Both the position numbers and the translations under genes were made by a program. The notes beneath the pieces were generated by a model. It was not told the DNA's origin, did no database searches, and saw nothing but the letters and a program-made list of their open reading frames with translations. From Sphyrna mokarran (lineage: Eukaryota), in NCBI GenBank assembly GCA_024679065.1, contig JAGIQG010000001.1:120156001-120220000 (forward strand): a DNA stretch of 64,000 bases, in the 5' to 3' direction. Shown here piece by piece: positions 47,965-59,534 of this stretch. The stretch's first letter is position 1, and every line of letters starts with the position of its first letter.

Positions 47965-48001
47965 ATGGATGCCAACTGCCGTAAGCATTGCGTCGAATTA
48001 T
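47965..48001 (+). CDS. pitx2: pitx2 exon 2 coding part (a/b N-terminus MDANCRKHCVEL); the exon starts at 47942
   Basis: Acceptor CTCTCTCTAG| at 47941, ATG at 47965, donor T|GTGAGT; peptide resembles mammalian METNCRKLVSACVQL. Missed by the ORF track. Confidence 0.9.
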
Positions 48002-49163
48002 GTGAGTAAAAGCTTCGTTTACCCCCCCCCCCCTTAAAACATCTTGCAATGTAGGGGCAGTTAATACTTTTGACGAAATTTGCCCTGGGTATAAATGACA
48101 CGTAGGGAAGCTGATTGATTCCCCTCGAGCATTTTTCTCAATACACCGTCTACTACCGACATCCACAAAGGATATTTTCACTCTAAGCTACGACCGGCTA
48201 AAATTATATTCTGAAGCAAGTTTCAATGAAGCTCAGATCCTCAAAGCAACAAGAAATAAGAATGAGCATCCCTACAGTGCTTAACGAGAGGAAAAAAAGG
48301 TTAATGCAAATGTAGAGTTAGAGATTTTAGTATGTGACAAACGTATACTTTTGGAACAAGATGCTCTGAAATATGTAACCATTATAGTTGTGAAATTTTA
48401 CCGACAGCCAGGTACTGGGCAGTTTTTGTGGGTGAGGCCTGTTGGTGATGTCATGGCTGACATTAATTAAGCAGCAAAGGAGAGAGTTGGAGCTCAGAGT
48501 GCCATAAGGAACGTTTAATTAACTCCAGTATTGGAAAGTGAATACACAGATATGCCTGTGCTTTGTTTTTGGTTTTGTAACCTTGAAAAATCGGTGATTA
48601 TGCGACAGACTGGGAAAGTGCAATTCCTTCAGCAGTCCAGAAAAAAAGGGATCGGAAAGCAGGCAGATACGCCAGGATATAGTTCACTCCACGTGAAGAA
48701 AAGAAACATGCTCCTTTTGAATCAAATGTATTGCCATCTTCTTGACATGAACTCCATCAGAATAATACGACAAAAATTCTTGCCTCAAAAGGCAAAAAAA
48801 TCCAGGCAAAAAACATGTCAAAAGTAATGGTTATAGTTTAAACGCACACGCCTCTTAAATCTGCCAGTATATTTTCTTATTCTCTCATTAGTGCCACTTA
48901 TCCAAAAGATTGGCTCGAATATGATTAATATAATAACCTTGCTGCTGGTATTAAACATGCGTTTATGTGAGGGCTGCTTGACAGTCCTGTAGACAAATTG
49001 AGTTAGATTTTAAAATATAGAGCATGAATATCTGAGAAGGGGCGTGGGCGAGAACCAACGAAACAGTCTAAACTAGGGAAAATAGAAAACCAAAGGGACT
49101 AACAGAAATTTTTGTTGCATTTTATTTACGTGTCTCATTTCGTTTCTATGTTTCCTCTCTCAG

Positions 49164-49298
49164 CCTCGCAGCCCTCTGCTGTGGAGTATTTATTTACGAA
49201 AGACACAGAAATTCGAAAATCTGAATTAAGTTCTGCAACGGAAGCTGGAAACAGTAGAAAAGACAATAAATTCCTGAGGCATCACCTCGACTCGCATG
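49164..49298 (+). CDS. pitx2: pitx2 exon 3 (b-isoform cassette exon, 135 nt, phase 1-1)
   Basis: TTTCCTCTCTCAG| acceptor, G|GTAGGC donor; SQPSAVEYLFTKDTEIRKSE aligns with mammalian VQPAAVECLFSKDSEIKKVE. Exons 2+3+5+6 = 942 nt, 313 aa. Confidence 0.9.
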
Positions 49299-51949
49299 GT
49301 AGGCAAAACAAAATAGTCTCCTATATTAAAATCTCCGAACATAAAGTCTTGAAATATTTACGTGATCGGATGGACGGAATTATGATGTGCGTAACATCAT
49401 TCACTACATTAAACCTTACAACAGAATTCCACTACACCCTCTGACAAAACTGAAAGAAATCTCACGAGGTATACCGGTTAGTCTAAAATTTGTGTTAGAG
49501 CGGCCTCTGCTGTACTAAAAGATCAAGTGTAGCAATCCTGAAGGGGTTGTGCTTGCTATGTGAACCCGGCATTTCTAAATTCCTTACAAGCAACCAACCA
49601 ACCAACCTCAATTTTAAATCAAAGTAATCTGAGAAAAAAAAATCATTTTCCTGGACTCATCTGAATAATTTACATTTGACTAAATAGCAAGTCCATTCAT
49701 AAAACAACAGGTAATAAAATATTGAAGATTGTTTCTCTATTTGGTTCTATCATTTGTTTTTTTAAATATATTCCTGCGTATATTACTTACTTTAAAAGGT
49801 GTAAATTATCTGCATACATGCAATTTCTGATACTTTCAGAAAGTGCGCATCCAAATAAGTGCAAACCAATTGTGCTGTTTATCTTCACGAACCTCACATT
49901 TTGAGACAAAGTGCTGAGCTGAAGAAAATTAATCGACTTTGCAAAAGACCTTTTTGTCACATAAAATCGCTTTCTTTATACCTCGTTAGTAATTATTGAT
50001 GTGCTGCAGTTTTCTTGTTGTGCACTGCTAGATGCGTTAATTGAACATTTTCCTATTAAAAATAGGTTTAAACAGGTTATCTTTTCCGTTTGAAATATAA
50101 AGATATGCAGTTGTTCTGCTCTAATGCTGTTTTAAATTGAACCTAGTATTAATCATGCTATAAATCCTTTCGGTTATGTAATACTTTTTTATTGGCAATT
50201 GCAGAAGTATAAGCTACAGTCATCCATTAATTTGGCCGAAACCTCCCAAATTATGTTCAGTTTTCTGTTGGCAACCGAGCCGTTCATTGGAGCTCCGTAT
50301 CTATAGACGTGTTTCAAATACATTTGATTCACGAATTTGCAAACATGTATAAAATTACCTAGACAGACAATCTTAAAGTAAAACGAAATGAAAATATAAC
50401 AATTTGCTCTCATATTGTGTGACATCCATTTCAACTCCAAATTTCGGGCGCGCGTATTTTAATCTTGTTTGTGCTTCCAATTTGATGATATGCACACGTT
50501 AATTTTTGAGGGTTTATTTATTCCATAGTCTATTCAATTGTGTGCATGTGTGCACAAATACGTCGTGTGTTGAAATGTTTTAGTTAGCACGGTGTTCCAC
50601 TCTGCTCCGTCGTTACTTTCGCATTTAAGCATTTTGTGTACAGTTTAAATCATTGCACAAACGGATTTTTATGATCAAATTTAACCATTACCATTTAGCC
50701 AGTCCGACACAATTTAAATGATCAGATTACATTGAAGAAGCCAAGTCATGCTTGGAAACCCATATGTTATAAGCTATAGCGTTTCTTTGTCCGCAGGCCC
50801 CCGAAAAATAATTCTAAATGTAAAATAAAATTTGACATGGTTTATCTCTTTAATACCAAACAGCTGCATGAATTGCGAACAGTTTGAAAATACTTCGTTT
50901 TCTTGAATATGCAAACATGCTACAATTTCTCTTGCCCCTCTTTAAAATGAGTATTCGCTCACTCCAGTAATCCACTAATCTGGAGTAACAATTGGTGTAC
51001 TACAGTGTATAATTTTTAAAAAAATCTTGTTCATTGTGAGAGTCTTTGAACGAGAATTTTAGAAGCATGTTTCAGGTGAAGAGTGAGGCGGTGCTTGTAC
51101 TATAGAAATGTGTTATTGCACTGCTAATCCTCTATTTGTGTAAATGCAGAGGGGTGCCATGGAGACGGGAAAGAACTAGAAATTTGTCAAATATCAATGA
51201 AAGAAAGTTTATTTCCTTTTAAGATCTGTTTACTGTCTGTCTGTTTTGTACAGTCTGTGTAATATATGCAGCAGTTGTTAGATTGACTCGAGGGAAAACT
51301 AAATGTATAATGAAAGCTTATTCGTGAGTAGGAATATACTAATGGAACAATTTGATATCTTCTTAATCCTTTGTAAAAAGCTTTGTCGTCTTCCTAATAT
51401 TGACTGAATGGGTAATTAATGGCTCTTCATCTTGGAGAATACTCAGTAATCCAACATAGGAAAAAGACAACAAACCCAAGGTATAAGACAACAAAACAAG
51501 CACAAATCTACCCAAACAGCACCAATTCATCCACTTAACAGACTACAAGTTCTGAAAGTAATCTTCTAATGTATATGTGCAAATACAATCAGAGCTAGCG
51601 ACCGTGTCGCAATACTACAAACATCCTAATTCGATACCTAAAAGCCTTATAATAAACGTGCAATTGATGGATCAGAAGTGCATTTTAATTCAACTTTTTT
51701 TTCGATTCCACGGCGCATTTATTTGAAAATAGTTTTGTGATCTTTTCTATGTGTCAGCACAAAGAGCTATGCATATTTTGGATTTTTTAAAATCATATTT
51801 TGCTCATGAAATATGCAGTATTCAAATAGCTCAATCTCCAACTACAGTTTCCTCTCTAAGATCTTAGATTTGTTGTTACGTCGCAAATCCATGCCCAGTT
51901 TTCCCAGAAATGCAACTTTGACTCCTTTCGATCAGTTTTTCACTCCTGC

Positions 51950-58010: not shown

Positions 58011-58380
58011 TTTTGCGGCAGGAACAGCGGCAGTCCGGGGATCCTTATCTGCAGTTACCTATCCCTGTCACTCGGACGCACACATACACAGTGTCAGCCC
58101 GGAATCATTCATTCACTGTCACCCCCTCGTCTGCTTCTTCTCCTCCTCTGGCGCACTTTCATCCCTGCACGGACTTTCTAATGAAGAGAGCAGCACGAAT
58201 GCGCAATTTAAAGAAGATCTGTGCAACTATCTATTGAAGATTTGTGCACGACAGTTCCTGGATCACCACACCCCTAGATCATTACATTCCCCTTTGGACT
58301 TCTCTCGTAGTGTGAGGTGGGCTGCGAGAAATTCAATCCTCTTTGGAAACATCGCACCGGCTGCTTGAATTTGTTTATAG

Positions 58381-58564
58381 ATGAACAGTACAAAAGACCC
58401 GTTGACTTTGGACCACCCTAGAAACAGCAGCAGCGGCAATAAATTGGTGCGGGATCAGGCAGCATTAGCCATGGCTTCGGGTTTGCAACCGATACGAACG
58501 AGCGAGCCCAAGCACCGGCTCGAGGTTCACACTTTATCGGACACCTCCAGTCCTGACACGGGAG
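58381..58564 (+). CDS. pitx2: pitx2 exon 4 coding part (c-isoform N-terminus)
   Basis: MNSTKDPLTLDH...LAMAS...KHRLEVHTLSDTSSP matches Pitx2c; donor G|GTAAGG, phase 1. Exons 4+5+6 = 954 nt, 317 aa. Confidence 0.96.
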
Positions 58565-59328
58565 GTAAGGCCTTTTCCATCTGTATAACACCGCATCGAT
58601 TTCACTTCAGTCGGACATAGTACCACTTCCTTATTTTATGGCATAACTTTATTGCGTCTCAAGACAAAAAATGCAATGCGTTTTGGCATCAGCGATCATT
58701 TTGTTATTCGCTTTGTACGATATGACATATTCAGTGTTTCACATGTTACGTCTGCAAATTGCACCATTCCTGAGTTATATCTATGGGCGCGTGCAATGAA
58801 ATTCTATGCGAATTATTGTATAGTATAATAATAGAACGGGGTATTAAATATTCATTTATTTATTACAGCCTAAAATGGGTCTGTTCGTACTTTAGTCGTT
58901 ATGGGCAAGGAAATATGTACATTTGCCAATGAAGTGATTAGCTTGTTTGCATTTTATAGACTAAGAAAACGCGCTGAGTATACATTCAGAGGTGGAAGTA
59001 ATTTATATACATCATTGCTGTTTCTGCATCAGAGTAGGTGCTTTTTAACTCTGCAAATATACGAATTGAATATATGAAGCAATGCGCAAAAATAAGCTAC
59101 TGTTATTTAAAAGTGAACCAGGGCATTTAATTTAGTCATTTAATCGTGAGGTGCTACGATTTAAACCCGCAATATCACTGTGCTTGTGCACTCAAAGGTA
59201 CTTTTAAAATGCACGATATCTGGTTCGTTATTTCTGGTTGGAGTTACTTTTCTCAGGTGTGTGAGTTGAATGTTTCTGTAATGCCCAAATGAACCAACTG
59301 GGAAATCACTGCTCATTTTTGTCTCCAG

Positions 59329-59534
59329 AAAAAGATAAAATTCAGCAAAGCAAAAACGATGACACGAATACAGACGACCCGTCAAAGAAAAAAAGACAAA
59401 GGCGCCAAAGAACCCATTTCACCAGTCAACAGCTACAAGAACTGGAGGCAACTTTCCAGAGAAATCGCTACCCAGACATGTCGACGAGAGAAGAAATTGC
59501 AGTTTGGACCAATTTAACTGAAGCTAGAGTTCGG
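59329..59534 (+). CDS. pitx2: pitx2 exon 5 (homeodomain helices 1-3 start)
   Basis: TTTTTGTCTCCAG| acceptor; EKDK...[46 protein letters not shown]; donor CGG|GTAGGT. Confidence 0.98.

Follow-up and report, generated by a model that had tools for sequence, protein, structure and literature searches.

The window analysed here, a 64,000-nucleotide stretch of the Sphyrna mokarran genome (contig JAGIQG010000001.1, positions 120,156,001 to 120,220,000), contains a complete Pitx2 gene on the plus strand. Its exon 6 is 98% identical, and its exon 5 90-96% identical, to shark Pitx2 proteins, which identifies the gene as the vertebrate Pitx2 orthologue. The exon 2 region is single-copy in the 2.77-Gb genome, and three further Pitx genes lie on other contigs. 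Exon 2 (47942..48001) comprises 23 nt of untranslated sequence, an ATG at 47965, 12 codons and a final T, followed by the donor TAT/GTGAGT. Exon 3, the b exon (49164..49298), is 135 nt long, has phase 1-1, starts with CC and ends G/GTAGGC. The coding part of exon 4 (58381..58564), the first exon of Pitx2c, matches shark c-form proteins and ends in G. Exon 5 (59329..59534) starts with AA, encodes the first part of the homeodomain and carries a weak second AG at 59333-59334. The coding part of exon 6 (61452..62015), recognised by identity to shark Pitx2 proteins, encodes the end of the homeodomain, the OAR tail and the stop. Introns 2, 3 and 4 are all phase 1, so that each codon split by a joint takes one base from the end of the upstream exon and two from the start of the next.

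When exon 2 is joined directly to exon 5, the path of Pitx2a, a TAA arises after 12 codons and the a form is not open. The path through exons 2, 3, 5 and 6 (Pitx2b) is open over 313 residues, with T/CC encoding Ser at the joint of exons 2 and 3. Exons 3 and 4 both end in G, which gives Glu with the AA of exon 5, and the c form (exons 4, 5 and 6) is likewise open; shark c proteins have 317 residues. Two other joins are in frame, from a donor after 47980 to exon 5 (261 residues) and from 48001 to an acceptor before 59335 (266 residues). All coordinates and product lengths of the initial annotation were recovered exactly when these joins were recomputed from the window letters, the T at 48001 included. 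Its claim that a complete protein from the canonical donor of exon 2 requires exon 3 is supported. A phase-1 join onto AA or AG yields a stop for one of the four possible last bases, and the stop alone is therefore no great coincidence. What sets it above chance is that the T is common to three shark orders, against a G in bony vertebrates.

Splicing of exon 2 and the T at position 48001

A search of runs with window positions 44300-49350 returned 11 runs, five guessed to be RNA (share 0.05-0.06) and six of unknown kind (share 0.25-0.29). Contigs of three of the five RNA-like runs (X1, X3 and X4, from three studies) and of one genome-sized run were aligned to 47900-49330. Note that the RNA nature of these runs is a guess, that X1 derives from one organism (A) and X3 and X4 from another (B), and that all of them may come from species other than the window's own.

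In all three RNA-like runs, one contig skips intron 2 exactly and continues past 49298 into the first 29 letters of exon 5, that is, along the path 2-3-5 (depths 19.4 in X1, 87.1 in X3 and 48.6 in X4). The predicted junction 48001>49164, across a GT..AG intron, was seen in X1; the equivalent join in X3 and X4 leads from 48001 into exon 3 as T/CA, which also encodes Ser. Exon 5 starts with AA in both organisms. In the contigs of these runs across 47900-49330, which drop rare forms, 48001 had no other partner and neither 48001 nor 47980 showed a loose end. The alternative that exon 2 is normally spliced from a different donor to give an open a form was not borne out, as far as contigs can tell. 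Further, a transcript skipping exon 3 was seen in none of the three runs, exon 5 lying outside the aligned stretch so that an a-join would be visible only as a loose end.

In contig assembly, strong forks break contigs and weak forks are pruned. Each of the contigs of X3 and X4 spans 225 letters, from the start of exon 2 to the 29th letter of exon 5; these are the points where several first exons and exon 4 merge, and the contigs run through the end of exon 2. Because they break at the merging exons but not at the end of exon 2, they hint that exon 3 skipping is minor in the samples of X3 and X4. In X1 the break falls at the end of exon 3 (49269-49298) and points to a fork, which might stem from a retained intron, a variant or a different downstream partner. 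Part of intron 2 (48493-48644) is matched at about 93% by a further X1 contig of low depth, which then diverges and may represent unspliced RNA, DNA or another locus.

To place the T at 48001, we compared 218 proteins, 66 of which carry the exon 2 motif (10 from sharks, 56 from bony vertebrates). All 10 shark proteins with exon 2, from four species (two catsharks, a bamboo shark and the basking shark), show 12 residues, Ser and then exon 3; one of them (P0005) carries a DDBJ-type accession and is presumably a cloned complementary DNA. In bony vertebrates, exon 2 encodes 15 residues in 54 of 56 proteins and 16 in the other two, and the following residue is Gly, Glu or Asp in 55 of 56, which implies G as the last base. 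A Ser alone could stem from another split codon. The contigs settle the T at the nucleotide level: in both other organisms the alignment runs across 48001 and the splice leaves from this base, leading to CC in one case and to CA in the other. All cartilaginous-fish exon 5 starts examined encode Glu (AA or AG), and a T at the end of exon 2 therefore produces a stop at the a-join in all of them.

The T at 48001 is thus real and old. An assembly error or an allele private to this individual, in place of a true G, has next to no chance of being correct: a G would give Ala at the joint of exons 2 and 3, yet four other sharks have Ser there and contigs of two other organisms splice from the same position. 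Such an error would leave room for itself only in that the single DNA-like run aligned (X7) covers exon 3 and its flanks, not exon 2, and that raw reads of the window individual were not part of the evidence. In substance, the Ser joints and the spliced contigs refute it.

First exons, flanking sequence and Pitx paralogues

Upstream of exon 2 lie several first exons of the distal (a/b) promoter. The 3' part of one untranslated first exon (45183..45276; donor CTG/GTAAGT) was recognised by a weak tblastn match to the N-termini of bamboo-shark models. The 3' end of another (46606..46630; donor GAG/GTAACA), spliced to exon 2, matches a loose X1 contig end 5' of exon 2. The 3' part of a further alternative first exon (47372..47473; donor AAG/GTTAAG) was found with tblastn of P0006 and P0010, in two frames; the upstream frame that is translated in the database models of other sharks is frameshifted here. 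Exon 2 is fed by at least three, perhaps five, alternative first-exon donors (45276, 45566, 45748, 46630 and 47473). The N-terminal extensions of other sharks' database models are either broken or devoid of an AUG in the window, and are probably untranslated in this gene.

No tandem or dispersed repeats were found in the Pitx2 gene region. CpG counts per 2 kb rise from 6-42 (positions 1-38000) to 47-74 from about 38 kb and stay high across the entire gene. The left part of the window contains reverse-transcriptase fragments of long interspersed nuclear elements (LINEs), for example at 10676-12885, 22078-22449, 27062-27331 and 36134-36409. Two non-coding stretches, 42872-42991 and 57841-58365, are conserved with other sharks and have been absorbed into their gene predictions, namely as the start of P0003 and the start of P0021; the latter resembles an open frame 5' of exon 4. 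Judged by their conservation, both stretches are likely regulatory or 5' untranslated sequence.

The paralogues bear on the history of exons 2 and 3. The first coding exon of the shark Pitx3 (locus L009; G000:C905, ~19,001,690-19,001,830) is 141 nt long, has phase 1-1 and lies 7.6 kb before the homeobox exon. Its open frame runs in from the acceptor and reads Met at the position of the Val (GTG) in Pitx2 exon 3: it starts Q-x-x-x-M-E-Y, compared with Q-x-x-x-V-E-Y in Pitx2. A fourth Pitx gene (loci L012-L013; G000:C894, ~10,409,550-10,420,600) resembles the 'pituitary homeobox 3-like' protein of the sharpnose sevengill shark (P0128) and is likely a paralogue kept in sharks. It has a b-like exon ~10.8 kb and a c-type first exon ~2 kb before its homeobox exon, which is the two-promoter layout of Pitx2. 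When this b-like exon was compared with Pitx2 exon 3, 1 of 2000 shuffles reached the score; against the Pitx3 exon none of 2000 did, but that match had been picked out by the very search that yielded it. Exon b is probably older than the duplications from which these Pitx genes arose, and we infer more weakly that it may also predate jawed vertebrates.

In four Pitx1 models of frog and reedfish (P0109, P0110, P0121 and P0124), the N-terminus is a 15-residue peptide that resembles exon 2 and precedes a Gly (19, 7, 0 and 0 of 2000 shuffles, respectively, reach the score). This suggests a little-noted distal-promoter form of Pitx1. Because these four bony-vertebrate models carry the peptide and the Gly, they also suggest that 15 codons plus G are the old state of exon 2 and that the shark state, 12 codons plus T, is derived. 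When the regions upstream of the three paralogues (110, 70 and 70 kb) were searched for a mini-exon like exon 2, the best scores were 19, 19 and 32, compared with 59 for the true exon 2, and no candidate was accepted.

Constitutive inclusion or regulated skipping of exon 3

We consider it likely that in sharks exon 3 is effectively constitutive, that Pitx2b and Pitx2c are made but not Pitx2a, and that the unused a-join has decayed to a stop. Directly observed are that the a-join reads as a stop, that the b-join is open, that RNA-like contigs of two organisms follow the b splice path and that four other sharks have Ser at the joint. According to this explanation, almost every transcript from the distal promoter would contain exon 3. 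With the a-join unused, the codon split by intron 2 would have been free to change, from G to T and thereby from Gly or Ala to Ser, while exon 2 became three codons shorter. The stop would then be a silent consequence of leaving the junction unused, and would now fix that state. Each lineage would need a single protein from its distal promoter, a having been retained in teleosts and b in sharks, and the junction left unused would have decayed to a stop. The proteins fit this account, since those of sharks with exon 2 are b-type in 10 of 10 cases, compared with 28 a-type proteins among the 56 from bony vertebrates (the others being 22 b, 3 b2 and 3 that join exon 4). The acceptor of exon 3 fits as well, with pyrimidines at 17 of 20 positions, the richest of five scored.

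Several points weigh against this explanation. The donor of exon 3 is weak (5.5 of 9 consensus positions). The contigs drop rare variants, show presence rather than absence, and come from three of the five RNA-like runs, of unspecified tissues. Exon 3 served as the query that first retrieved the shark proteins, and protein listings would omit any transcript that stops at codon 13. Further, isoform numbering implies isoforms X3 of the basking shark, X2 of the whitespotted bamboo shark and X2 of the smooth-hound that are not among the proteins compared. The T at the last exonic position of the donor departs from the consensus G, yet it has lasted across the three shark orders that the evidence spans, and selection could explain this. 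As for history, a pairwise comparison of Pitx2 exon b with the Pitx3 exon was not significant (1868 of 2000 shuffles reach the score). A profile test of exon b against the first coding exon of Pitx3 succeeded in one direction only: 0 of 1200 shuffles reached the median one way, and the other way the score was at the shuffle level. No exon resembling exon 2 was found in the 110 kb upstream of this shark's Pitx1.

For rays and chimaeras, a or b forms were sought among the matches listed (120 of 445 hits, and up to 15 members of each cluster); sawfish, white shark, smooth-hound and whitespotted bamboo shark gave only c forms there. No chimaera Pitx2 was among the matches listed, and one further search returned the query itself and one unrelated protein of 817 residues.

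The initial annotation had read the choice between a and b as an on/off switch operating through nonsense-mediated decay (NMD). In such regulated unproductive splicing, exon 3 would be skipped in certain tissues or stages, and the degraded or untranslatable transcript would lower the output of distal-promoter Pitx2. With 204 nt between the stop and the last exon junction the 50-nt rule is satisfied, exon 3 is a cassette exon in mammals, and the dose of Pitx2 isoforms matters in development (PMC2330153). The weak donor of exon 3 and the age of the T would also suit such a switch. The stop stands at codon 13, however, and none of the five candidate first exons (5/5) supplies an upstream in-frame AUG, so that it does not lie clear of the start-proximal zone of escape, which covers 21-23 codons or more in mammals; NMD is not triggered by stops this early in LMNA and beta-globin (PMC12776119, a preprint). 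In two catshark models (P0001 and P0005), an upstream extension of 25 residues would place the stop at codon 38, which would suit the switch. Should sharks behave like mammals, a skipped transcript, if made, would probably be fairly stable. Pitx2a is the preferred splice in mouse pituitary (PMC2330153), and a stable skipped form made at a mouse-like rate should have been visible in the contigs; it was seen in none of the three runs, which is weak evidence. In addition, the last 29 letters of exon 2 have no listed difference in the second organism, and the T is no more conserved than its neighbours. The evidence does not support the switch, and we regard regulated unproductive splicing as quite unlikely.

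A stable skipped transcript could instead act as a short upstream open reading frame, with re-initiation inside the homeodomain yielding a 206-residue inhibitor like PITX2D and hence a switch between activator and inhibitor. An in-frame AUG does follow the stop at a distance of 147 nt; it encodes position 28 of the homeodomain, and this Met is also the first residue of the human 206-residue model P0133. A precedent is PITX2D, whose homeodomain is truncated and which inhibits the other isoforms without binding DNA (PMC2330153, PMC5753117), and the escape of start-proximal stops from NMD (PMC12776119) would preserve the transcript. Re-initiation nevertheless requires a skipped transcript, of which the three runs hold no sign; moreover, an out-of-frame AUG 28 nt after the stop precedes the in-frame one, whose context is weak. 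We consider this route highly improbable. Taken more broadly, an old and selected T might have turned the a/b cassette of cartilaginous fishes into a dose switch, in which exon 3 skipping produces a stable 12-codon upstream open reading frame that either silences the transcript or gives a PITX2D-like inhibitor, in tissues or stages beyond those sampled (tooth lamina, eye, pituitary, head cavities); this seems unlikely.

Sharks might also make a short a-like protein through the donor after 47980 or the acceptor before 59335, the two in-frame escape routes proposed from the sequence at the outset. Both joins are open in the window, the GTAAGC motif of the first (47978..47986, GCC/GTAAGC) has no listed difference in either organism aligned, and mammals use an alternative acceptor in Pitx2 (Pitx2b2; PMC2330153). 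The second route does not hold across species: it gives Tyr only where exon 5 reads E-K-D and a stop (T/AA or T/AG) where it reads E-K-E, as in four of the eight cartilaginous-fish species whose exon 5 start was examined (two catsharks and two bamboo sharks), and the letters of organism B show this stop directly. Its AG lies 6 nt behind the main AG, with A-rich sequence between. The first route is in frame as proposed, but its donor matches 5 of 9 consensus positions, the lowest of seven donors scored, compared with 7 of 9 for the used exon 2 donor; it left no loose end or other trace in the three runs, and it overlaps the coding sequence for Cys-Arg-Lys, which is conserved anyway. No such protein was found among the 218 compared, and we judge an a-like protein very unlikely.

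Shark Pitx2 among known isoform systems

The shark gene shares with mouse and human Pitx2 its six exons and two promoters, the ATG in exon 2, the common exons 5 and 6, a symmetric phase-1 exon 3 (138 nt, compared with 135 nt in the shark) and exon 4 as the first exon of the c form (Lamba et al. 2008, PMC2330153). It differs in that exon 2 encodes 12 residues and ends in T, in contrast to 15 residues and G in mouse and human (PMC2330153), and in having at least three alternative untranslated first exons. Further, where the mouse pituitary prefers a (PMC2330153), the shark a-join is a stop and only b was seen.

Zebrafish pitx2 also produces two protein forms, one per promoter, and is the mirror image of the shark gene, with a and c only as opposed to b and c (PMC3267762). 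The seven teleost proteins with exon 2 agree: five are a-type, two join exon 4 and none is b-type. Amphioxus and tunicates, with Pitxa/b and Pitxc, have one distal-promoter and one proximal-promoter form, as does the shark (PMC8377849); the comparison concerns layout.

Alternative splicing coupled to NMD by the skipping of an essential exon is a known class. The shark gene resembles it in that one outcome stops prematurely, over 50 nt ahead of the final junction. It departs from it in that the exon is frame-neutral, the stop is made by the junction itself at codon 13 and no skipped transcript was seen.

Pitx2a, b and c have been described as three isoforms conserved in vertebrates (PMC8377849, PMC5753117). 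Among the titles and opening lines of abstracts listed from the open-licence literature, none reported that cartilaginous fish lack Pitx2a, which is weak evidence of novelty, and b-only shark models are already implicit in database annotations. The shark gene is a real, modest variant of a known isoform system, and would represent a new mechanism only if the skipped transcript were made and regulated.

If the eyes, teeth, jaws and head muscles of sharks develop with b and c only, and those of zebrafish with a and c only, the N-termini of a and b would be largely interchangeable. The conserved feature would then be the two-promoter design, as in amphioxus. 'Pitx2a' primers, probes and names carried over to catshark work would be wrong, and sharks would serve as a natural knockout in which to probe any functional difference between a and b.

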